DNA of 64,000 bases from Octopus vulgaris (taxonomy: Eukaryota), in the NCBI GenBank assembly GCA_951406725.2, contig OX597831.1, positions 37,014,001-37,078,000 on the forward strand, written 5' to 3'. Below, one piece after another: positions 11,272 to 59,099 of this stretch. The translations under genes were made by a program, and so were the position numbers. The first letter of the stretch is position 1, and every line of letters starts with the position of its first letter. The notes below the pieces were generated by a model. The model saw only the letters and a program-made list of their open reading frames with translations. It ran no database searches and was not told the origin of the DNA.

Positions 11272-11680
11272 CGTAGGAGTGGCTGTGTGGTAATTAGCTT
11301 GCTGACCAACCACATGGTTCCGGGTTCAGTCCCACTGCGTGGCATCTTGGGCAAGTGTCTTCTACTATAGCCTCGGGCCGACCAAAGCCTTGTGAGTGGA
11401 TTTGGTAGACGGAAACTGAAAGAAGCCCGTCGTATATATGTATATATATATGTGTGAGTGTATGTTTGTGTGTCTGTGTTTGCCCCCTAGCATTGCTTGA
11501 CAACCGATGCTGGTGTGTTTACGTCGCCGTCACTTAGCGGTTCGGCAAAATAGACCGATAAAATAAGTACTGGGCTTACAAAGAATAAGTCACGGGGTCG
11601 ATTTGTTCGACTAAGGGCGGTGCTCCAGCATGGCCAGTCAAATGACTGAAACAAGTAAAAGTGTAAAAGAGTAAAAGAGT
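11269..11680 (+). mobile_element. Full-length family-1 SINE (reference copy)
   Basis: A box TGGCTGTGTGG, B box GGGTTCAGTCCC, CORE-like TCTTGGGCAAGTG, internal (TA)(TG) tract, tail CCAGCATGGCC..GACTGAAACAAGTAAAAG. Other copies or fragments near 18320, 21985, 36745(-), 37950, 42350, 44050(-), 44620(-), 54260(-), 61047. Confidence 0.9.
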
Positions 11681-13850: not shown

Positions 13851-14083
13851 AGTCTTTTTATTACATTTAAATTTTTTTATGTGCTTTTCTATGGATTTCT
13901 TTATGTTTTTCTTTATCTATATTTGCTGTAACACAGCCGAACTTAGTTTTATATAAGAAGAGAGTGGACAGTGATAGGAACTTAATATTTGGAGACTGCG
14001 ACAATCTGAAGTAATGCGGTAACAAGAGTGACCGTGCTTGAATATGAGAGGAGAGGTGGAGGTTTCCGGATTTTAGAATTGAA

Positions 14084-14492
14084 AGGCAGCGAGCTGGCAG
14101 AATCGTTAGCACGCCGGGCGAAATGCGTAGCCGTATTTCGTCTGCCGCTACGTTCTGATTTTAAATTCCGCCGAGGTCGACTTTACCTTTCATCATTTCG
14201 GGGTCGATGAATTAAGTACCAGTTATGCACTGGGGTCGATATAATCGACTTAATCCGTCTGTCTGTCATTGTTTGTCCTCTCTGTGTTTAGCCCCTTGTG
14301 GGTAGTAAAGAAATAGGAAACAGGTATTTCGTCTGTTTTTACATTCTGAATTCAAATTCCGCCGAGGTCGACTTTGCCTTTTATCGTTTCGAGGTTGATA
14401 AATTAAATACCCGTTGCGTACTGCGGTCGATCTCATTGACTGCCCCCCCTCCCCAAAAGTTCAAGCCTTGTGCCTAGGGTAGAAGAGGATTT
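14084..14492 (+). mobile_element. Family-2 SINE dimer (tail-A unit joined at GGTATT to a headless tail-B unit)
   Basis: Two Nin/Deu-like cores, one head, junction at 14323. Confidence 0.85.
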
Positions 14493-14842
14493 TAGATTAG
14501 AATTTGTTGATGCCGCGAGGAAATTTTAGCTTTAAAATTTATTTTTCGCACTCACATGTTTTAATTTTTAGTATTTGGTAGATTTGTTTTTCTTAAAACA
14601 CAGCTAGCAAAATAACTGATATTTGAAATAGAGTTAGATGAGCTGGTAGAATCGTCAGAGCGTCAGAGAAAATACTTCAGTCTCTTTCTGAGTTCAAATC
14701 CTGGGGAAGTAAATTCTGTCTTTCATCCCTTTGGGATCGATAAAAGAAAGTATTAGTCAAATACTGGGGTCGATATAATCAACTTTGCAATGGATGAGCG
14801 TTGCTTTCAGAGGAACGTTGCGAACTCGGACACTGTGAAGCC

Positions 14843-15058
14843 GGCGAGCTGGCAGAAACTTTAGCACGCCGGGCGAATTGCTTAGCGGTATTTCTGAGTT
14901 CAAATTCCGCCGAGGTCGACTTTGCCTTTCATCCTTTCGGGTTCGATAAATTAAGTACCAGTTACGCACTGGGGTCGATGTAATCGACTTAATCCCTTCG
15001 TCTGTCCTTGTTTGTCCCCTCTATGTTTAGCCCCTTGTGGGCAATAAATAAATAAGAA
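14843..15058 (+). mobile_element. Family-2 SINE, tail A
   Basis: Head GGCGAGCTGGCAG, tail AGCCCCTTGTGGGCAATAAA; imperfect TSD ACTG(T/A)GAAGCC. Confidence 0.85.
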
Positions 15059-15370: not shown

Positions 15371-15955
15371 CCTTTCCGCAATAGGCACAAGGCCTGAAAT
15401 TTGTGTGGAGGGAAGTGGTAGATTGCATAAGCCCCAGTAATCAACTGGTATTTGTTTTATCGACTCCGAAATGATAAAGAGTAAAGTCGACCTCGGCGGA
15501 ATTTGAACTCAGAATATGAAGACGAATGAAATACCTATTTCTGTTTCTTTACTACCCACAAGGGGCTAAACACAGAGGGGACAAACAAGGACAGACAAAC
15601 GGATTAAGACGGTTACATCGGCCCCAGTGCGTAACTGGTACTTAATTTATCGACCCCGAAAGGATGAAAGGCAAAGTCGACCTCGGCGGAATTCGAACTC
15701 AGAACGTAGCAGCAGACAAAATACCTATTTCTTTACTACCCACAAGGGGCTAAACACAGAGGGGACAAACAAGGACAGACATAGGTATTAAGTCGATTAC
15801 ATCGACCCCAGTGCGTAACTGGTACTTTATTTATCGACCCCGAAAGGATGAAAGGCAAAGTCGACCTCGGCGGAATTTGAACTCAGAACGTAGCAGCAGA
15901 CAAAATACCGCTAAGCATTTCGCCCGGCGTGCTAACGATTCTGCCTGCTCACCTT
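15371..15955 (-). mobile_element. Family-2 SINE trimer with a single head
   Basis: Junctions at AATACC 15530-15535 and 15720-15725. Confidence 0.9.
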
Positions 15956-22305: not shown

Positions 22306-22912
22306 CCTTTCTACTATAAGCACAAGGTCTGAATTTTTTGTGGGGGGCAGTAAGTCGAGTACATCGACCCCAGTGTTTCACCGGTACTTAATTTATCGAC
22401 CCCGAAAGGAGGAAAAGCAAAGTCGACCCCGGCGGCATTTGAACTCAGAACATGAAGACAAAATACCACTAAGCATTTTGCCCGGCGTGCTAACGTTTCT
22501 TATTTCTTTATTGTCCACAAGGGGCTAAACATTGAGGGGACAAACAAAGGGATTAAGTCGATTACATCGACCCCAGTGCGTAACTGGTACTTATTTAATC
22601 GACCCCGAAAGGATGAAAAGCAAAGACGACTTCGGCGGAATTTGAACTCAGAACGTAACAGCAGACGAAATACCTATTTATATTTCTTTACTACCCACAA
22701 GGGGCGAAACACAGAGGAGACAAACAAGGACAGACAGAGGGATTAATCGATTATATCGACCCCAGTGCGTAACTGGTACTTATTTAATCGATCCCGAAAA
22801 GAATGAAAGGCAAAGTCGACCTCGGCGGAATTTGAACTCAGAACGTAACGGCAGACGAAATACCGCTAAGCATTTCGCCCGGCGTGCTAACGATTCAGCC
22901 AGCTCGCCGCCT
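22306..22912 (-). mobile_element. Family-2 SINE trimer
   Basis: Three cores; junctions at ~22500 (AGAAAC site) and 22669-22674 (GGTATT site). Confidence 0.9.
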
Positions 22913-24158
22913 TAACATGGGGACATATTGCCTTGACTGGAAACAGGCGATGACTGGCGACAGGAAAAGCATCTGGCAGTAGAAAATCAAATCTGCTTCA
23001 ACAAATACCGTCTGTCCCATACATGTATAGAAAAGTGGTCGTTAAATGGTGATGATGTCAATGCTATAGACACCCACACACACATACACATATAGCATAT
23101 ATATATATTCAATCTCTTCCTGACTGATTTCTCTCCTTCCTTCCTCTTTCCTCTCCCCCTCTCTCTTTGTAATATACACAATACACATGTGTAAATAATA
23201 GTATTGGCGTATTCTTGTATTCCTCAGTTAAAATTAATCACAAATAAATACATTACAGTTACGTTAATGTCGTGCCACGGTGTCTTTGCTTTTGCTTTCA
23301 GTTAGACAAGAACACCAACACCAACACCATCAACACCAGCACCAACAACACCAGCACCAAAAAAAAAATACAACAACAAAACAAAAATAAATATCAATAA
23401 ACAAAAAAACAGAAATTAAAAATAAAAAAAAAAAAGCAAAAAATTATAAAATAAAATAGAGGGAAAGAAACATCCTCAAAAAAATACAAAAACCCCCCCC
23501 AAGAAACAAAACAAAACAGCCAAACCGAATTGAGAATATCTCCAGCCAAAGCGATAGCATGGAATTTCATTTGGCTTTTTTTTCTTCCTTTCCTTCTTTC
23601 ATTCTCTGTAATGAAATGTCTCTCATTCGTCATCAAAGTGTTGTTCTATGAATAAATTTATTCTTTCTAAATCACACAGAAATGACAGTATTATACACTT
23701 TTACATTCTTTTCTTTGAAGTTTTCCCTTAATTTACTTTCTTGCTTTTCCCCTTCTGTTTATTTTTTTTTTATTTATTTTCTTTTTCTTTTTGTTTTTAT
23801 TTTTGGTCTTGCGATGCTATTATGTATATCAGACAACATGCAATCATCACCATCGTCATCATCATCAACTTCGTCATCGTCATCACTGCTAAACCCACAC
23901 TACTTTCACTATCATCGTCGTTGTCACCGTAGTCGTGGTCGTGGTCGTCACCCTTCCTCACTTTCTTTTTCCTCCTCTTCCTAATAAAAAAGTTATGACA
24001 ACTTTTCCAATACTTTCAGTACAAACCTCGTGTGTGAGCGTTTGGTGTGTGTGTGTATACATACATACATAAATATTTACATACATACATATCTATATAT
24101 ATATATATATATATATACATTAATTGAAGTGTTCAATATTATATATTCATTAAGGCCA

Positions 24159-30943: not shown

Positions 30944-31641
30944 TGTGTCTGTCTGTCTGTGTGTTTCCCTAAAACTTGAGAACTACACAACCAATCTCAT
31001 TCCAATTTTACACATGCCTTACGTAGGGTCCGAGGAGTGTTATCGGCAAAAAAAATTAACTTTTTGCCTAGGGCGAGCCCACAGCAATATCATATCTTCT
31101 CCACTACGATTCCCTAAAACTCGAGAACTACACAACCAATTCCATTCAAATTTTACACATGCCTTACTTAGGATCCATGTAGTTTAATGGGCAAAAAATT
31201 TCAACTTCTTGCATAGAGCGAGCCCATAGCAATATCATATCTTCTCCACTATTTCAGTATTACGTGTTAAGAGTGAAACAAAAACGTTTCTCTATTTTAT
31301 GTCAGATACTTTCCCTTTAACAATAAAAATAATAATATCAATTGAATTATATGTAGTAAGTAATAATTAAAATCAAACTAAAGTATAATATAATCGTTAC
31401 ATAACAAAAGTAAAAATAGCAATTGGTATAAAATTGCATCAAGTATTTGAACTTGAATAAGTGGTTTCACATGAATGGGAATAAATTAAGAATAAAATTA
31501 GCGTGCAGAAATGGAATAGTCCAGATGGATAATAAAAAATTAAATTAAAGAAAAGACTATTGTCTATAAAGTATACAATGTAGAGAAAAAAGGTTATGTT
31601 TTTTTGCGCTCTGTAAAATTCGGTAAAAAAGAACAAAAAGC

Positions 31642-33309
31642 GTTGTTGTTGTTGTGGAAATTCTGAACGGCGTTGACGCGGTTTCGCGTTTCGCTCGTTC
31701 AGCGCGTTACACTTTTTCTGTTTTGGCGGCCGTTTTCGGTCTGTCAGACAGAAGGAAATGGACTATGAGTCTTTAACAGACTTGTCCACGACAGATGAGG
31801 AACTGGAACAGGCAATTGCAATGAAGCTGATGGAAGAAAAGGCTGGAGTTTTCGAGTCTTTATCAGACTTGCCTACGTCTGAGAAGGAGCTAGAAACGGC
31901 AGCAAGGGAATTGGAAGAGAAGCTGGGTTATACCTATGCCGGTGTAACCAAGAAGGCGGAAGAGAAGGGGGTCGACATGGCCAAGTTGCCAAGTTACCAG
32001 AAGTGCATGAAGAGGGAAGGCGGTGAGGTGGAACTATCACCGACACCCAGGAGAGAAGAATGGTATGATGGGAGGACCATTGTTTGCAGGGTGTTCGCGG
32101 GCGAAGGGAGGAGGGTGGAAGTTGTAACCATGGAATGGATGCGGGAGGCCCTGCGAGGAACTGAGGAGGAAGTAGATTTTCTGACTCGAGGATCCAAGTA
32201 CGGGACCGTAGTTGTGCACTTTAAAAGTGAATCTGCAGCGAGGAAGATGGCAGCGAAGGCGGTGAAGTCGGAAAAGGTAACACTGTTACCTACGTATTTA
32301 AACAGGAGGATTACACGAATAAGGGTGGAGGGAGTGCCACCAAACGTGGAGGCAGAATGGATTGTGGCGGCTGTGATCAGCGGCCACGAGGACGAAGTGG
32401 ATATTCTCCATGCCTCGGTTAGGTCCGGGGGCTGGAGGGGAGTAACAGTGGAGCTGAACGTGCAGGCGGAGACCGAGGTACTGGTGGACCTGACGGAGGG
32501 CATCAGACTGGGAGAGGTGATCATGAGAGTGTGGGTGGAGGGCGGGGCTCCACGTTGTTGCAAGTGTGGCCTGAGGGGTCACATAAGAGCCTTCTGCCCT
32601 CCCCCAGGGAAAGAAATGGATTCCGAACCAGAGGAGAAGGAAACAGAGGAAGAGAATACACAGAAATGGAAGGAAGTTGGAAGTAAGAGGAAGAGAAGAA
32701 TACGTGGAAAAAAAGAAAATAATATGGAACTCCAATCTACCCCAAAACCACCCACACCCTCTGAGTCCCACCCTATCCATGCAGACATTGAGCCCACCCG
32801 CTCCCCCCCAACAAGAAAACAAAAGAAAAAAAAAGAATACACACACACAAGAGATTGAAAGCGAACCCAGGCCGTACATTTGTACTATGACTGAACAGAA
32901 AGAAGTTAAAAGTCTAATGGAAGAGTATAAATGGTATGATGTTGGAGAGACTAGGTATGCTGTGATTGAAAAGAAGAACATAGGGGAGTTTATGGGGAGG
33001 TGTGAAAGGGAGAATTGGGAGGTGAAAGATATAAGAATGAGCGATAAATTCGTGGAAAATATGGATGAGTATTTCGGAGTAAGAATGGATATGGAATTTA
33101 TTCGTATTGGCAAAGAACATTCAAGTGACTATGAAAAACAAAGGACAAGTAAGTGATGCTGACGGACGGGGCCGTTGGTATCGCTTTCATTTTATCATTT
33201 TTTTCGTTTAACAATTCATGTTCATAAAGTTTAATTATAATGTTCTATGTCCCCATGTTTTGTTATGTCCGCCATTCTTCGTAGCCCCTTAGTGGGTAAT
33301 AAAGAAATC
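31642..33309 (+). mobile_element. RT-less ORF1-only non-LTR element (HAL1-like, Tx1/L1-related)
   Basis: GC-rich hairpin 5' UTR, gag-like ORF, short 3' UTR ending AGCCCCTTAGTGGGTAATAAAGAAAT. Confidence 0.7.
31758..33156 (+). CDS. Gag-like/ORF1 nucleic-acid-binding protein (RRM-like region + CCHC knuckle), ~465 aa if one extra base in the A-run near 32830 is removed
   Basis: ATG-initiated 366-aa ORF with CKCGLRGHIRAFC (CX2CX4HX4C); overlapping +1-frame ORF continues to 33156. Confidence 0.75.
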
Positions 33310-33600
33310 ACATGGAGGAAAGCACCTTCGAAAAGTGTCTTGGTGCGACTATGAAATGTATCTAATCAGAAGCGGTAAATTGGCCACAATAGAAGCAAGG
33401 TTCGAGTCAACGGAGCGTGCAAGGGAGTACTCGACTCGAACTTGCAAAGTGGAAATATTTTATTTTTACCTTTATATCTGGGACGTAGGACGTCCGGGAA
33501 AAAAATTAAAAAAATGCCTCCCCCACCAGAAGTAGAGGTAGGCTGAACTGTAGCCACACGTCTACACAAGAGGGAGGACAAGATACAATTGATCGAAATT
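33310..33600 (+). pseudogene. Decayed paralogous ORF1 fragment
   Basis: YLIRSGKLATIEARFESTERAREYS..ILFLPLYLGRR..MPP..EVEVG aligns with FLTRGSKYGTVVVHFKSESAARKMA..VTLLPTYLNRR..VPPNVEAEW. Confidence 0.75.
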
Positions 33601-33786
33601 ACAAGAGACGGGCTAACAATTCCAGTCTGTTATATATTTTGAGTATTGTTATCACTAGCGATATCAAGATATAACTTTGTATTTTGTATTTTATGTGTAG
33701 ATGTATATATATAGATGTACATGTAATATGTACACATATATATGCACATATATACATGCACTAGCAACGACGGGTCTTTAATGCTA

Positions 33787-33824
<38 letters not shown>

Positions 33825-43359: not shown

Positions 43360-44015
43360 AAGCAGCGAGCTGACGGAATTGTTATCACGCTGGGCGATAT
43401 GGTATTTCGTCTGTCTTTAGGGTTTGAGTTCAAATTCCAAAGAGGTCAACTTCGACTTTCATCCTTTCGGGGCCGATAAATTAAGTACCAGTTGTGTGCT
43501 GAAGTCGATCTAATCGACTGGTCCCCTCCTCAAAAATTTCGGACCTTATGCCTAGTGTAGAAAAGAAAAAGGATGCGAGCTGGCAGAAGCGTTAGCAGAC
43601 CGGGTGAAATGCTTAGCGATATTTCGTCTGTCTTTATGTTCTGAGTTGAAATTCTGTCGAGATCGACTTTGCCTTTCATCTTTTCAGGGTCGATAAATTA
43701 AGTACCAGTTGCATACTAGAGTCGATCTAATTATCTGTGCTCCTCCCCCAAAATTTTGGGCCTTGTGCCTAGAGTAGAAAAGATCATAGTAAGACGGCGA
43801 GCTGGCAGACACGTTAGCACGCCAGACGAAATGCTTAGAGGTATTTCGTCTGCCGTTACGTTCTGAGTTCAAATTCCGCCGAGGTCGACTTTGCCTTTCA
43901 TCCTTTCGGGGTCGATTAAATAAGTACCAGTTACGCACTGGGGTCGATATAATTAACTGTGCCCCTTCCTACCCCAAAATTTCGGGCCTTGTGCGTAGAG
44001 TAGAAAAGAAAAGAA
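43360..44015 (+). mobile_element. Three full-length family-2 (tail B) SINEs head-to-tail
   Basis: Heads near 43361, 43572 and 43794, each ending GTAGAAAAGA. Confidence 0.9.
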
Positions 44016-48245: not shown

Positions 48246-49793
48246 AACCTATCCTGTTTGCCACTTATGTGGAAATTATTGACTGGAATACTCGCAGAGT
48301 CAATGTACGAATATCTAGAAAAAAAATGGAGAAGTGTAAGTGCTGAGGGACCAAGGATCAACTCCTGATAGATAAAACTACTCAGAGACTGCAAGAGGAG
48401 GAACAGTAACTTAGCCATGTCATGGATCGACTATCGTCAGGTGTACAATTTGATCTCACATTCTTGGATTATAGAGTGTATGAGCCTGTTTGGGATTGCA
48501 TCGAATGTTGAGCAATTGCTTGGAAAAAGTATGGCGAATTGGAGGACGGACCTGACAGCACACGGAAGAAGTTTAGAGACAGTAGAAATTAGGAGGGGCA
48601 TCTTCCAAGGGGACTGCCTGTCGCCACTGATCTTTGTACTGTGCTTGATACCACTAACACTGATTCTGAGTAAAGCAAAGGCTGGGTATGTATTGAAAAG
48701 CCGCCAACAAAAAGTTAACCATTTGTTATTCATGGATGACTTCAAACTTTATGGTAAAGATGAAGTCCAAGTCAGTTCCCTCGTTAATACGGTGTATACC
48801 TTCAGTGCTGGAATCAGAATGGAGTTTGGGCTGAGAAAGTGTGGTGTGTTAGTCTTGAAGAGAGGCAAAATCGAATGTATGGACGGGCTAACGATACAGT
48901 CGGAGGAGGTTATGAATCAGATAGCAGAGACTTGGGAATTATGGAAATGGATAAATTGATAGAGAAAGAAGTGACAGAAAAATTTAAGGTGGAGTACTTG
49001 CGCAGACTGAGACTGATCCTTAAGTCGAAATTAAACAGACGGAATGCGATCGAAGCTATCAACACCATGGCAGTTTCACTCCTTAGATATGGAGTAGGGT
49101 TAATCACATGGATAGTAGACGAACTAAACATCTTAGACAGAAAGACAGGGAAGTTGCCAACTAGATATGGGTCACTCCACCCAAAAAGGACACCAGGCAA
49201 AGAACGCCACTGCCCAGAAGGAATATAAGAGACGTCACGACAATATAGCCAGGCTTATCCATTGGACACTTTGCAACAAGTATGGACTTGGCAGAGCAAA
49301 AAATTAATACGGCCACAAACCTGAAGGCATTGTCGAAAATAGAAATGCAAAGATCCTATGGGATTTTATAATTGAGTGCGACCATGAGATTGAGAATAGG
49401 AATCCGGACATAGTCTTAATTGAGAAAGAAAACAAACTATGCTGGATCATAGATATAGCATGCGCAGCTGACAACAAGGTATGCGATAAGGAAGAAAGAA
49501 AAGTCGTGAGATATAGCAGGTTATCTTGGGAAGTTAAGCAGTTGTGGTCGATGAAAAAGGTGGTAGTAGTACCAATAATTGTCGGAACCCAGGGAACAGT
49601 GAGTAAAAATCTCGAGAAGTACGTGGAACAAAAAGGGGTTGCAATAAGGATGGAGCATTTACAGAGAACCACTGCATGGAACCGCTCGAATACTCCGGAA
49701 GGTGCTCGAAAATTAGGGGTGTTAGTTTAGTTCACTGGTAGTGAACAGCTGACACTGTAGTACATCTCCAGCATTACAAGCTGTGCAAAGGCA
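48246..49793 (+). mobile_element. R4/Dong-clade element, truncated (RT + endonuclease remnants)
   Basis: CLPLMWKLLTGI, WIDYRQVYN, RRGIFQGDCLSPL, HLLFMDD, RRHDNIA, NRNPDIVL..IIDIAC; (TAA)n on both sides. Confidence 0.9.
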
Positions 49794-51639: not shown

Positions 51640-52150
51640 AATGAAAGGAGAAAAATATAATAAATAAAATAAAAAATGCAAGAAAGAAAGAAAATAAACA
51701 TTGCATACACTGATAATGAAGGGACATATGCATAGCATACAAAAGTTAAAAAAGAAAAAGAAAGGGCTGGGAGGATGATAGAGATGTGGCCCTCCTGATA
51801 CAGGAAGGCTTCTATGGATAACCCAACTCTCCGAGATTTCCCTGAAATCCCAGGAGCAAGTACCCTCTTCAATTCCTTCTCTCCGACTCACAGGTCTACA
51901 CTTAGTGAGGTGCCATCCATTCAGGCGAATTTTTGAAACTTTCACCCATCTTTCAATAAACTCACTCGAGGACAGCACTTCTCTCTCCATTCGCAATTTC
52001 CTTTTCAAGTGAAACTTGAGGAAGTCAATGAGAGCTCTATCAAACAGGAATGTATCTTCCCTCATGTCTTTCAGCTTCGTCTACCAAACAGCCTCTTTCG
52101 CCACAGCCACAAGGCACAGAAAAATTGCCTTGCGATTGAAGGAGAATAAT
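51640..52150 (-). mobile_element. Tx1/L1-clade LINE 3' fragment
   Basis: DTFLFDRALIDFLKFHLKRKLRMEREVLSSSEFIERWV is homologous to the C-terminus of the 56441-57985 ORF. Confidence 0.85.
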
Positions 52151-53552
52151 AAATATAGAAGCTATATCTGGATCCTTAACACTACTCACGGGCCAAAAAA
52201 TAGCCCTGTTAAGAACAGCCCACATCCTCTGCATGACTCTATCAATTCAATAATGCAATCTAAACAAAACAACCCACAAACACATGACTCATTCTATACG
52301 GCAATTCCCCAATGAAATAAACTTCCACCAACAATCCAGGTAACCAACGCATTATACATTCAATACACAATACAAGCTGTGATACAACCAAAGACTGCAC
52401 CCCAACCCCAAGAAGAAAAAATAATAACTAACGCAATGCAATACTAAGAAGTGTTTGTGTCCTCCCAACAACAGAAAAGAACGCATGATGCTGCACACAA
52501 ACCAGCAATATGGAAGTGTAGCAGGTGATGCAGTAGAAATGTGCTTCAATCTACCAAACTTTGAACACTTATATAACAATAACAATAAGAGAAATGACGA
52601 CTATGATGATGATGAGAAGGAGGAGGAGGAGGAGGAGGAGGAGAAGGAAGATTTCTTTTCGCTTAGTAAATGCATTGCCAACAACTTTAAAAACAATGAC
52701 CACAGCAACAATGTTACAAAGAAAAAAACATGACTGTTCAAAGGAAGAACAGCAGAATACAAGATGCAATCTCGGATTCAAAACGTTGTAGAACATATGT
52801 AAGGTATGTTAAAACAGAAACTGAAAAATAAAAATGAAAATATTTAATGAGAAGGTATCCTTCAATTCAAATGTTATTGAGGAAACTGAAGTTAATCTAG
52901 TTGATATAATCTCCATAATGTATCATCCTTAATTGCGGATATTCTAATCATTAGCACACTGCATTTTCTCTTGAATTGTTTGTGACACTGACCACACAAA
53001 CTACAGATAATCATTAGCAGACAAACCTCAAAGAAGGTCAAGTGGGAGATCACATCTGTCTCTAGTCTCTGATGTATTTTTTTATTCTGTATACTCGTGC
53101 CGTGTGGAGGACCAGCATGTCAAGGTATAGAGCCAACATGTTCTCTCTCCGCTAAAAGGAGGACTAAAAGAGATTGAGTGGTAAGTTATGTATTCCAAAC
53201 TCTCACTAGCAATGACTGCCTAACAGACCTATGGGTTAGATGGTTGTTCCCTGAGTAATACAAAAGCATCATTTCCCAGAAATAGGGGATCACCCACTAG
53301 CAAATGGTAGATGCACTGTTCCAGCCCATGCCCCCCATACTAAAAAGCTAAATTGTCTTCTGTTATTTTCTCCCCAAAACTTTCCATGATGCTTAGCTCC
53401 AAGTCAGAGGCTAAGCTGACCGAAAAATCGAAATGATATTTCCAGTGGTGGCCACCTCAATTATCTTTCAAACATAATGTACACGTTCTGTTAGTACTCA
53501 GTGCCTCTTTTGTTAAGACGGTATTATCCCCAATGGGATAATACCGTCTTAA

Positions 53553-53783
53553 GGCGGCGAGCTAGCAGAATCGTTAGCACGTCGGGCGAAATGCTTAGCG
53601 GTATTTCGTCTGCCGTTACGTTGTGAGTTCAAATTCCGCCGAGGTCGGCTTTGCCTTTCATCCTTTCGGGGTCGATAAATTAAGTACCATTTAAGCACTG
53701 GGGTCGATATAATCGACTTAATACCTATGTCTGTCCATGTTTGTCCCCTCTGTGTTCAGCCCCTTGTGGGTAATAAAGAAATA
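53553..53783 (+). mobile_element. Full-length family-2 SINE (tail A) with 16-bp TSD
   Basis: GGTATTATCCCCAATG at 53520-53535 and 53784-53799. Confidence 0.9.
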
Positions 53784-54508
53784 GGTATTATCCCCAATGA
53801 GAAGGATTTGGCTGCTATTTCTAGTAGGTCCACTCAGAGCTCCTCCCATTGGCTTGATAACTGTTTAAGACTTGTTTTGTTTATCTTCGTTTGCTGGCTA
53901 AAATTCAAATGCAATTAAATCAATTATAGAAGGCGTATGTCCCCTCTCCACTTCAAACCTTCTCTATCGATATTTCTCAAACTGAAATATTTCAGTTGTC
54001 ACAATGTAGTCCTTCGGGGAAAATATATCAGACAATTACTTTCTATTTTCTATCTTCAATTACACAGCAATTTATTTATACTTAATATATATATATTATG
54101 AGGTGCCATATTTTGACATGTATGTGTTTTCCTTTAGCATCGACTTCAGCCAATGAACAATTATAACTCGTCTAAAGACTTAACTGTCTCCTTCTTTGCA
54201 GAACATTCTGTTACTGACGAGAATACTGTCCAGTTCAGATGTCTGTTGCATCACTTCTTTCTTTTATCTACTCATTTCGAACATCTGACTGTGGCCATGC
54301 TGAAGCACCACCTTAACGGATGATTTTAATCAAAAATAATTATCTTGAGCAGTTAGCTTTAAATCTGGTATTTATCACATTCATCTCTTTCGCCAAACCA
54401 CCGAATTAGGGAGTGGCAGACAAACCAACACCAGTTGTCAAGAAGTGGGAGGAGACAAACACAAATACACACACGCATGCACGAACACACACAGACACAC
54501 ACTCTCAC

Positions 54509-54879: not shown

Positions 54880-55145
54880 TAGAAAAGTAGTTTGGATGAA
54901 TTCAACAAAAATATATGATTCGAATTTCGTATTGGGACCAGAAAGCAGCCATCAGAGCGCATGGAGAATTGGGCGACTGGATTGACATTCAGAAAGGCGT
55001 CCAGCAGGGTTGTATTTTGTCATCTGATTTATTCAACCTGTATAGTGAGAAAGCTCTAAGCAAGATCAAGACAATTGCTGGTCTACAACTTGGGGAAAGG
55101 AATTATAACAATCTGAGGTACGTAGACGATACGGTTTTGTTTTTG
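54880..55145 (+). mobile_element. RTE-clade RT fragment
   Basis: YWDQKAAIR..IQKGVQQGCILSSDLFNLYSE..NNLRYVDDTVL. Confidence 0.9.
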
Positions 55146-55430
55146 GACCTCGGCGGAATTTGAACTCAGAACATAAAATCAGACGAAATACCTATTTCTA
55201 TTTCTTTACTACTTACAAGGGGCTAAAAACAGAGAGGACAAACAAGGACAGACAAACGGATTACGTAGATTATATCTACCCCAGTGCGTAACTGGTACTT
55301 AAGTTATCGACCCCGGAAGGAAGAAAGGCAAAGTCGACCTCGGCGGAATTTGAACTCAGAACATAACGGCAGACAAAATACGGCTTCGCATTTCGCCCGG
55401 CGTGCTAACGTTTCTGTCAGCTCGCCGCCT
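55146..55430 (-). mobile_element. Family-2 SINE dimer joined at GGTATT
   Basis: Junction AATACC 55187-55192. Confidence 0.85.
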
Positions 55431-55876
55431 TAAAGACTTATAGAATAATAAGAGACCTAAAAAATTAGGTATTGAAATTGGTTGGTTCATTTAAACCGTT
55501 CATGGTGATACTCCAGAATATCTGCAGTCCAATGACTGAAACATTTAAAAGGATCAAATCATAAATATATTGTTAATTTCAAGGTAGGAGAAAAGGAAAA
55601 ACATTATATTTGAGTACGTATCGTACGAATGTAAAAGCATTATGTAAACGTATGGCGGACAATAGGGATGAATATTTCATGAGTTAATATTAAACAGGAA
55701 GTTGCTCAGTTTAGATATATTGCAAATGTAATTGTCTTAGCGTTGTTGGTGCCAAGTAACTGCATAGATTTAGGACGTTCTTGTTTAAATGATTCCTGTA
55801 TGTTGAAATTTTACACACTGAGGCCTGTTTACAGTGTTTCTTACATTGAAATGAAATAGATCAGCATAATTTGCAT

Positions 55877-56075: not shown

Positions 56076-56379
56076 TCATACGTATCTTTATATACATACA
56101 CATGCATATATATTTTATATGTATGCATATATTTACACATACACACACATGTACACATATGCGTGTGCACCCACACATGCACACATATGAACACACACAC
56201 ATATATTTTTGGTATAGATTTATCTCTCTGTCTGTCACTCTCTATTTTCTATGTATGTATGTACGTATGTATGTATGAATATATCTATGTATCTATGTAT
56301 GTATGTATGTATGTATGTATGTATGTATCTATCTATCTATCTATCTATTTATCTATCTATATGTCTGTCTCTATGTCTG

Positions 56380-56426
<47 letters not shown>

Positions 56427-56440
56427 GTATGTCTGTCTAT

Positions 56441-58358
56441 GGACATCTATCGAGACCCTTCGACATCGCACGTTCGGTCCGTCAGGGATGCCCCCTCTCG
56501 TCGCTTCTATACGTATTGACTCTCGAGCCATTATTGCGGAAGCTGGCAACTTTGAGAGGCATCCCGCGAGAGCTGGGATGCGGGACGAGCGTGTCTGCAT
56601 ACGCGGACGACGTCACCGTCATAGTGTCTAGCCACGAGCACATCGAGCAGGTCGGCGAGACACTGAAAAACTACGAAGCGGTGACAGGAGCGAAAATCAA
56701 CCGGGAAAAGTCAGTGGGCTTGCGACTAGGCACTTGGAGAAGCAAGCCCATGCCGTCCACCAGCGCCTCCGTCGTGGGACGCTGGACCGACGGCCCGGTT
56801 GAGTTGCTCGGGGTCTGGTTTGGTCCGGACCTCCAAGTGGAGAAGAACTGGAACGAGATAACGAGTAGGGTGGTCACTCTCGCCCGGCAATGGGCCGAGA
56901 GGAAACTGTCCCTAAAAGGTCGGGCGGAGGTGGCGAACACGTACATCGCGTCCGTCATCTACTACCGCCTGACCGTCGTACCTTGTCCCGACCCTACCAT
57001 CACCAAACTACAACGCATTCTCTTTCGCTTCTTGTGGAGAGGATGCGTCCCGATGGTCAGGCGATCCATTTGCTGTCAACACCCGTTAAAAGGAGGGCTG
57101 GGCATGCCGTGGTTGATGATGCGCAGACACGCGCTGAGACTGCGACATCTCTGGCTCTATGTAGACGACGGTGAACAGGTGTGGTCGCCGTTTGTGAGGC
57201 ACGCTTTCCCGCAGCTCGTCTCCATGACCGAACTGCAGTCGTGGATCAAAAAGAGGCCGAGGAAGGGCGAATGGCACCGCGAGTGTCGCGTTGCTCTCAA
57301 GCAACTCTGCCGTCCTGGGTCGACCTTGAGTGACTTCAACACAACCAAAGCATTCTATAGGGGTTTAGTGGAGGGGAGGTACGACGACGAGCTCGGGGCG
57401 AACCTGGACGTCGACGAGGAGTACCTGACCCGCCTGTTCAGGACGACTTTCGGGCCAGGACCCATGGACAACTTCCAGAGATCCCCGGCCTGGCAGTGCT
57501 ACCGAGAAGCGCTACCCGTTCGGGATAAGCTCTACAGACACGGCTCGAGAAACACGGGGCCGACCTGCCCGCGATGCGGTCAGAGCGACGAAACCGTTCT
57601 GCACGCACTCGTGCAGTGTCCAACAATTTCCGACCTGTGGGCTTGTGTCGAACAACTGCTGTCACGTGTGGGACGAGTCGGTTTATCAGCTGAATCTATC
57701 GTCAATATTGTCACGCCTCCTTCCTTCAAACGGGAAGGAAGAGCTATTTTCATCATCCTTGTGGCTATGGCGAAAGAATGTATCTGGTGGACGCGTCTGA
57801 AAGGATTGGAGACAAACACTTTCCTCTCTGGTCAATCTCTCATCAACTTCTTCAAGTACCACTTGAAAAGGAAAGTGAGAGTAGAGAGGCAAGTTTTGTC
57901 TAGCGAATGTTTAAAAAAAAGATGGGTGAATGTAGCAAGAATGGCACGTATGAATGACGAAGCCACCTTGAGCATAATCCTATGAACCCAGAAATTGAAA
58001 ACAGAGAGTTGCTTATTTGCAAAAAAAAAAAAGAAATATAACATGTGACTTCATTGACCGAGGTTACCGTGGTCTTTTCCGTAGGCTTTTCTTTCCACGG
58101 GTAAGCCTCACCTGTCCTCCCCTTTACACTTCATATTGACATTTCTGTGATAACGATCCCTATTGATCAATTTTTTTTTTCTTTCCTCTCCCCCATTTTT
58201 TTTTAACCTCCCCCTTTTTTTTGTCCTCTTTCTCTCCTTTTACGATCCCTTTTGATCGAAACTCCCCCCTTCCTTTTTTTTTTTAACCTTCAAAAGAAAA
58301 GCTCTACCTTGTAATTTGTTCTATCTGTGTGCAGCCCTGTGTGGCTAATAAAGAAACA
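56441..58358 (+). mobile_element. Young 5'-truncated Tx1/L1-clade LINE (RT C-half + zinc-binding domain; ORF open to 57985)
   Basis: [47 protein letters not shown]; no stops over ~515 codons; 19-bp TSD TATCTGTATGTCTGTCTAT (56422-56440 / 58359-58377). Confidence 0.95.
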
Positions 58359-58372
58359 TATCTGTATGTCTG

Positions 58373-58451
<79 letters not shown>

Positions 58452-58452
58452 G

Positions 58453-58561
<109 letters not shown>

Positions 58562-59099
58562 ATCTATGTGTTGCCTGCGAAAAGGTGTGCCTTCCAGTTG
58601 GAAGATAGAAAAAGGCATGGTCAGAAAACCCCATGCTGTTCTCTCTGCCAGCCAGCACAGCTGTGCATCATGCAATAGAATGGACAAATCTTTGACAGAG
58701 CTCCAAAGTCACACAATTGCCTCACATTGCATTCAATGTTTCTTTCTAGTATTGGCTTTGGTTGTATATGAGAAAGCAGCTACTAAATATGTATATATAT
58801 ATGTGTGTGTGTGTGTGTTGTTGCTAGCATCCTTTTTGTCTCAGGAGGCAATGGCGTTGCTCATAAAATAATCCAGTTTGGTTTTTTGCGCAAGCCTGGT
58901 CTAGATGTAAGAAAATCTTGGGTAGCCCAATCGTCAAGATTCCTCTCTCGACCTTACTGACGTAGTCCAAAGGAGTGCAGAGAGCATTACGTTTGATGAT
59001 GATGAGGATGATGATGATGATGACTTTTTAAAAAACCTTTACATAATGATATCCTTTCGAGAACATGTTTCTTTATTTTTTCTTATATTTCTTTAACTC

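Follow-up and report, generated by a model that had tools for sequence, protein, structure and literature searches.

A LINE, an element that encodes only an ORF1-like protein and a short SINE lie within one 64,000-nucleotide stretch of the Octopus vulgaris genome (contig OX597831.1, positions 37,014,001 to 37,078,000; hereafter the window), and their 3' ends look alike. This locus raises the question of whether the likeness reflects a common 3' stem-loop by which a reverse transcriptase selects its RNAs and, if so, which LINE carries which passenger. The initial annotation proposed one three-member system, in which an autonomous Tx1 LINE serves both the ORF1-only element and the SINE. The assembly searched comprises 2.8 Gb in 227 contigs; the family names LINE-A to -L, HAL-A to -G and SINE-A1/A2 are coined here.

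Elements of the window and their families

The features of the window are listed in Table 1. Full-length LINE-A copies contain two ORFs, an ORF1 with a CCHC knuckle and a 1145-aa ORF2 with endonuclease (AP-type), reverse transcriptase (RT) and zf-RVT domains. The closest solved relative of the ORF2 protein (ORF2p) is human L1 ORF2p (E 2.6e-53). LINE-A copies are young, abundant and intact, and older relatives exist. The Tx1 label is a provisional assignment from this anatomy and from the listing of L1-Tx1 as the only recently active L1-group LINEs of Octopus vulgaris in the available part of the published repeat annotation (PMC13282606), which reports 13 such families and gives no such detail of their tails. 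Pieces of two other RT-encoding LINEs (48372-48959 and 54948-55088, both on the plus strand) also lie in the window, as does an older Tx1-like ORF2 end (51919-52143, minus strand) without the tail in the stretch examined.

Table 1. Annotated features of the window (positions counted from its first nucleotide)
Feature	Positions	Strand	Remarks and evidence
Tail-A SINE, then second unit beginning at SINE position 52	14083..14317	+	
Tail-A SINE, subfamily A2	14838..15054	+	closed by a G-C pair, not G.U
Head-to-tail pair of tail-A SINE units	15541..15953	-	
Head-to-tail tail-A SINE units, A1 and A2	22501..22915	-	upstream of tail-B copy
Host repeat, 5' part	30965..31597	+	putatively Helitron-like, ~1.1 kb, non-coding; meets 3' part directly in 21/30 loci
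HAL-A, ORF1-only element	31598..33308	+	1.71 kb, multi-copy, frequent head-to-tail trains; genome matches, train mapping
HAL-A ORF1-like gene	31758..33156	+	one CCHC knuckle; two frames in window copy; 465-472 aa in intact copies
HAL-A predicted extended 3' stem-loop	33275..33306	+	upper hairpin 33284-33297; lower stem 33275-33282 with 33299-33306; minimum-energy fold and family comparison
Host repeat, 3' part	33309..33790	+	starts at shared insertion site; HAL-A flank and other loci
Same SINE with tail B, example	43791..44012	+	
SINE left target-site duplication (TSD)	53520..53535	+	16 bp; counterpart on the right 53784-53799
SINE with tail A, subfamily A1	53549..53783	+	head/body common to tail-B SINEs up to ~53718
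SINE predicted extended 3' stem-loop	53749..53779	+	upper hairpin 53759-53771
Tail-A SINE, then unit beginning at position 52	55198..55433	-	
LINE-A, 5'-truncated Tx1-like LINE	56438..58357	+	ORF2 end (stop 57985) and 3' UTR; RT and zf-RVT domains; full-length copies L122-L125
LINE-A predicted extended 3' stem-loop	58324..58354	+	upper hairpin 58333-58346
Four-base microsatellite, LINE-A target	58358..58566	+	present upstream too, 56218-56437

The ORF2 of LINE-B is 58% identical to that of LINE-A. A Pfam scan for zf-RVT, with 40 of 150 matches examined, sorted the ORF2 ends into ten clusters, whose identity is 45-70% with LINE-A and 52-91% with LINE-B. A midpoint-rooted tree built from 37 ORF2 ends, without three broken rows, sets LINE-A apart from the group that includes LINE-B, -E and -F. 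LINE-D and HAL-E, -F and -G were added as chance finds. A distant ORF2 homologue, tried as a route to other families, yielded only a LINE-A subfamily at 96% identity, and the tail was not found in the stretch examined of three LINE ends (L340, L372, L374).

The ORF1-only elements have a single ORF homologous to LINE ORF1, no RT, multiple copies and a LINE-type tail. HAL-A has 52 genome matches, 46 of them at 90% identity or above. Its protein aligns to LINE-A ORF1 at 28-31% identity (E 1e-20 to 5e-24), and an origin of HAL-A by internal deletion of LINE-B or LINE-A as present helper was rejected, since its ORF1 is only 35% identical to that of LINE-B and 31% to that of LINE-A. As the ORF1s of the HAL families are only 24-38% identical to LINE-A and LINE-B ORF1s, these families are old lineages that have kept or renewed their tail. 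The HAL-A element is covered by contigs from four runs presumed to be RNA, from which transcript ends are not resolvable; between 32422 and 32792 the most frequent difference, seen 11-13 times, is G in the window copy against A in these contigs. Three of six loci of an older ORF1-only family (85% alike; L300:3300-4087, L306-L311) are at position 19, in the head of the SINE, and another family (L322, L324) forms tandem repeats of ~2.5 kb outside the host repeat.

The host repeat that surrounds HAL-A has a 142-bp internal duplication in its 5' part. Its 3' part ends in a hairpin and a four-base terminus of the kind typical of Helitrons, both seen in the copies examined, and the repeat is a putative Helitron relative.

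The SINE is short and non-coding, with high copy number, TSDs of variable length and a LINE-derived tail. ARAGORN and Rfam gave no match to a tRNA-derived head, where motifs resembling A and B boxes were judged by eye, and the central part of the body may resemble the Nin domain of Nin/Deu-domain SINEs. At the 5' junction of the SINE there is a 40-bp palindrome (53513-53552), the left flank being copied back inverted. A second abundant SINE-like family (~11440-11640) has a different head and tail and the end of a body motif in common.

The common tail and its predicted stem-loop

The three 3' ends quoted in the initial annotation are all found where it placed them. Compared within the window, the SINE and LINE-A tails align over 42 nt (83%, E 7e-7), and the SINE and ORF1-only tails over 26 nt (96%, E 3e-5), so the likeness is not confined to the polyadenylation-like hexamer. 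On this similarity the three window tails are homologous. The hexamer is nearly invariant across the family tails, and each family's target agrees with the bases that follow the tail. The stretch alike between passengers and LINEs is 30-75 nt long, and the remaining UTRs do not align. Poly(A) is absent from the 3' ends of LINE-A, HAL-A and SINE-A; the HAL junctions examined include a single long A-run.

The last 75 nt of the passengers were compared with those of six LINE families. The HAL-A and HAL-B2 tails score best with LINE-E (58 and 73, respectively), the HAL-C tail with LINE-B (89) and the SINE-A2 tail with LINE-G (72). The HAL-C and SINE-A2 matches each include 32 exact nucleotides, the longest passenger/LINE identity, which in SINE-A2 lie upstream of the hairpin. 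The SINE-A1 tail is closest to LINE-G and next to LINE-B. Scores of LINE-A with the passengers are 25-49, the lowest or near lowest of the six families. The comparison is consistent with a clan-wide tail whose passengers belong with sister LINEs and not with the LINE-A of the window, and the proposed trio is not supported.

The same annotation saw a stem directly before the A-rich end in all three elements. Each of the three window tails can close a 4-bp hairpin there, but taken singly these hairpins are no better than those of shuffled sequences (z -1.4 to +0.4), with pairing probabilities of 0.01-0.96 in a 124-nt context. The register is also not common to all three: LINE-A pairs one base out of register, with A-U, G-C, C-G and C-G versus G.U, C-G, C-G and C-G in the SINE and the ORF1-only element.

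The hairpin emerges when many families are compared. All 24 family tails have, no more than 3 nt from the A-rich end, a hairpin of 3 bp or longer (5.1 expected from shuffles), and 19 of the 24 have one of at least 4 bp (3.2 expected), the other five reaching 3 bp only; since the families are related and the rule for hairpins, like the cut points, was chosen after inspection of the tails, these counts are support and not P values. The 3-bp rule is passed by 9-38% of upstream positions. Among 19 testable further copies, relatives of LINE-G added later, 18 have the hairpin (4.1 expected).

The fate of the paired letters depends on how the tails are aligned. A MAFFT alignment of 16 tails gave no double change in the pair count and no pair by RNAalifold, small tail subsets gave one non-significant double change each, and RNAalifold found no consensus pair in either unrefined alignment (16 and 24 tails). 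In the plain MAFFT alignment of 24 tails, a 10-pair model is 78% paired, a value reached by one of 500 shuffles, and double changes occur at three upper pairs. When the loop is left free at 4-6 nt, 91 of 96 cells pair; for the 12 distinct stems the figure is 45 of 48, and the maximum in 20000 arm swaps is 44. The stem letters span C-G-rich to A-U-rich; the LINE group at the greatest distance has an A-U-rich stem at the same place. In a LINE-A subfamily the closing pair is broken. The covariation sought in aligned family 3' ends is therefore seen in the upper stem, which changes on both sides with pairing kept once many families are compared, although the compensatory changes are confined to that stem and to related families, and RNAalifold is negative.

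The lower stem is 81% paired and shows no double change. In about 15 of 24 minimum-energy folds a conserved upstream pyrimidine motif is also paired with the A-rich end, and the A-rich end with its hexamer is predicted to form the 3' strand of this longer lower stem. Taken over the families, sequence comparison supports the hairpins as part of a structure-conserved tail in LINEs of the Tx1-like clan, ORF1-only elements and the SINE.

Two further observations concern the upper hairpin. Four of 20 SINE copies (L409, L411, L414, L415), of differing subtypes, lack exactly this hairpin, as if the copying enzyme had skipped it. The 5' end of a full-length LINE-A (L122, ~1715-1755) holds a perfect hairpin of ~11 bp, the top of which is identical to the SINE-A2 hairpin.

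We consider it probable that the tails of the Tx1-like LINE clan are recognised by ORF2p and have been borrowed from sister LINEs by the ORF1-only elements and the tail-A SINE. The tails are homologous, their junctions are without poly(A), the hairpin keeps its place while its letters change, and each family has its target. A fold that is real and serves the formation or stability of the RNA 3' end, as a processing signal or with the hexamer signalling polyadenylation, while the enzyme takes any suitably ended RNA and RNA-target pairing sets the site, would account for the nearly invariant hexamer and for the match of the bases behind the tail to the target of each family; human L1 ORF2p also binds stem-loops without sequence specificity, according to the available part of PMC10830416. 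We judge this unlikely, because the junctions have no poly(A) apart from the one long A-run among those of HAL, the entire tail is retained in the Pol III-type SINE, for which a Pol II signal would be superfluous, and the HAL families track the tails of particular LINEs. Likeness by descent only, with hairpins as chance products of C-rich and G-rich runs, would fit the weak single folds and the lack of a consensus structure in unrefined alignments, but is very improbable given that unrelated stem letters keep pairing at the same place and that 30-75 nt of tail stay alike while the passenger ORF1s are 24-38% identical to those of the LINEs.

Targets, candidate carriers and known systems

Target-specific insertion is present in the LINE families examined. 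LINE-A is followed by the four-base microsatellite in 89 of 90 loci (a few copies counted twice). The same microsatellite follows none of 75 HAL tails in 16 regions (counted by eye) and none of 38 SINE-A junctions, of which 22 are typical of SINE position 52, six of position 17-19 and ten of other sequences. Among the top SINE-A copies, 12 of 30 stand in front of position 52 of another SINE, and the exact junction of the tail into position 52 occurs 7198 times in the genome and not at all in the control. Sister LINE families (L312-L316, L355, L343-L345, L358, L369, L348, L351, L353, L359, L361) have as their targets one microsatellite with a two-base unit, another with a three-base unit, and several multi-copy sequences.

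The site of HAL-A in the host repeat is used by other elements as well. Thirty loci contain the right half of this repeat, and 21 of them are empty, six hold an ORF1-only element (one being the window) and three hold LINE-B, with all insertions at one position. The top LINE-B copies abut the host repeat in 23 of 25 cases and another LINE-B in two, in a search whose query held 25 nt of the host and favoured host-flanked matches. Trains of mixed HAL families touch the host in 14 of 16 regions, and two trains lie elsewhere. LINE-B closes five of the 16 trains on the 3' side (its end is seen in three), one LINE-E copy has a HAL 5' end directly behind it, and LINE-F copies and HAL trains have junction sequences in common. 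The train junctions have varied 5' truncation points, which fit repeated insertion or template jumps. Copying of whole trains by the host transposon was rejected as a general origin, because neighbouring units within a train differ in family and tail, and may hold for some; HAL-B units are 98-99.7% alike versus 87-96% for host flanks compared with the window copy, and two trains lie outside the host. HeT-A also forms head-to-tail arrays with its helpers.

Median pairwise identities among top hits, which are biased towards youth, are 99.8% for LINE-A, 99.0% for LINE-B, 97.6% for HAL-A, 95.8% for the host repeat and 94.4% for SINE-A. The age of HAL-A overlaps that of LINE-B, and most SINE-A copies are older than the LINE-A and LINE-B bursts.

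The claim that LINE-A, HAL-A and the SINE form one system fails on the targets, which are disjoint (89/90 vs 0/38 and 0/75), and on the low LINE-A tail scores. Target choice is attributed mainly to the carrier endonuclease in the available part of Kojima 2015 (PMC4494074), and since the targets are disjoint, LINE-A is unlikely to carry either passenger. That LINE-A itself carries both would be suggested by the tail homology and by its abundance, youth and intactness, and the last bases of a passenger could steer priming to other sites; we nevertheless regard it as largely refuted by the disjoint targets and hardly credible, as HAL elements are co-located with LINE-B and LINE-E and the bulk of SINE-A is older (94% to the majority) than LINE-A at 99.8% pairwise, though older LINE-A relatives exist. 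The carrier is identified by the target and not by likeness of tails on its own.

A carrier of the SINE was sought at its own sites. At position 17-19 junctions, 14 of 15 were examined, 13 being SINE-derived and one a short unplaced tail piece; at the atypical position-52 junctions, 20 of 21 were examined and none had an ORF; and in 20 of 40 LINE-G matches examined none lay at SINE sites in sense orientation. One relative of LINE-G lies in the SINE head in opposite orientation. A LINE with the target of the SINE was found in 0/14, 0/20 and 0/40 of the three sets of junctions and LINE ends examined.

Borrowing of tails within the clan, the reading that we favour, may be pictured as follows. LINEs of a target-specific Tx1-like clan would end, without poly(A), in a two-part predicted stem-loop tail, and ORF2p would bind this stem-loop to start reverse transcription. 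The endonuclease of the carrier would nick the target of its own family, and the start of copying would lie a few bases past the stem, at the point where RNA end and target match. The RNAs of HAL elements would present the same handle and supply ORF1p, and the SINE would present it on a probable Pol III transcript. LINE-B, LINE-E and probably LINE-F are candidate carriers of the ORF1-only families; the SINE tail may come from a lineage near LINE-G, with another relative as carrier. Each new unit of a train would insert at the 5' end of the one before it, or would be added by template jumping. RNA folding, ORF2p binding, the priming site, the setting of the target by the endonuclease and the carrier pairs are inferred here; ORF1-only elements and LINE-B do occur at the same host site and in the same trains, and tail-A SINEs are younger than tail-B SINEs. 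We advance only tentatively the wider idea that one two-part handle, with the hexamer as a stem strand, serves a dozen target-specific LINEs, at least eight HAL families whose tails are traded with various LINEs, and a SINE of ~10^5 copies, the dominant one of the genome, which may have used it through successive tail replacements, its older tail B having the loop of tail A on other covarying stems.

Stem-loop recognition had been called unusual for the L1 type, a judgement that is fair for animals and overlooks published plant and algal precedents (PMC3472496, PMC3747384). In maize and sorghum, ZmSINE2 and ZmSINE3 share their tails with LINE1-1_ZM, and in Chlamydomonas SINEX-3_CR does so with L1-1_CR; the available parts of the two papers count only three such SINEs among upwards of 800 LINEs of the L1 clade, none of them with Tx1. 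As in the octopus, LINE and SINE share the last ~45-80 nt in these pairs, and in the maize lineage a hairpin with compensatory changes is read as stringent recognition. Unlike these pairs, which have homopolymer tails, the octopus elements are an animal, target-specific, Tx1-like clan without poly(A) and with protein-coding passengers.

Among Tx1 elements, the available part of Kojima 2015 (PMC4494074) describes crocodilian SINEU with Tx1-Mar, Tx1L in Tx1D, and Kibi and Koshi. Those families are likewise specific to microsatellite or transposon sites, with passengers assigned by shared target and with tandem insertions. SINEU, unlike the octopus SINE, ends in poly(A) without similarity to the LINE tail, and ORF1-only members or a stem-loop do not appear in that part. 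For the stringent L2 pairs UnaL2/UnaSINE, ZfL2-1 and ZfL2-2, stem-loop binding was shown by experiment (Hayashi 2014, PMC4176376, available part). They resemble the octopus clan in the 3' stem-loop as proposed ORF2p handle and in related LINEs with differing stem-loops, and differ in belonging to the L2 clade and in that binding was measured, whereas here the fold is predicted from sequence. The ORF1-only non-autonomous LINEs HAL1, HeT-A and Ag-Sponge, from the L1, Jockey and CR1 clades, also keep only ORF1 and depend on a full LINE, as far as the accessible text of PMC5786205 and PMC5753468 describes them. The octopus elements differ in that they comprise several old lineages of Tx1-like type, inserted at fixed interstitial sites, and in that their tails match different helper LINEs.

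A tail-sharing stem-loop of animal Tx1 elements was not found in the literature searched, with Repbase and subscription journals outside the search; the available parts of PMC4758252, PMC5381506 and PMC5804259 contain nothing on animal Tx1 tail-sharing. Evidence from one plant lineage and one alga, in the available part of PMC3472496, is what has so far been brought to the question of whether the L1 group had the relaxed, poly(A)-based choice of RNA ancestrally or acquired it later. A young and intact animal clan with stem variants, distinct targets and natural passengers makes this question directly testable by tail swaps. The stem-loop likely lets these relatives of human L1 choose their passengers by RNA shape, and the clan offers sequence-specific insertion enzymes that are independent of poly(A).

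Two tails on one SINE body

In 600 kb of evenly spaced sequence at round coordinates, 38 SINE bodies have tail A, 28 have tail B and 16 are unclassified; by extrapolation from this sample, the tail-A SINE has about 10^5 copies. The break between the shared body and the tails lies at ~53718. Tail-A bodies are 94.1% alike to their own majority sequence versus 84.9% for tail-B bodies to theirs (n 38 and 28; P 1e-10). The proposal that tail A was swapped in for tail B agrees with this result, tail-A SINEs being younger on the same body, as a swap predicts. The suggested comparison of TSD lengths and age profiles gave, besides this age difference, duplications 7-20 bp long for 14 of the 18 top SINE copies that lie outside other SINEs.

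Tail B may derive from an older relative of the same clan, and the swap would then have been one between relatives. A search for a LINE source of this tail gave none in 82 matches.

The form of the SINE tail varies with the site. The G-C-closed form stands mostly before position 17-19 (11/14; L325-L338), and the G.U-closed form (L246-L305) before position 52 or like sites. Tail B (43959-44012 in the window, and L246-L305) has a 4-bp hairpin with a five-base loop identical to that of tail A and other stem letters, and at least three covarying forms of this hairpin are found among 20 copies tallied.
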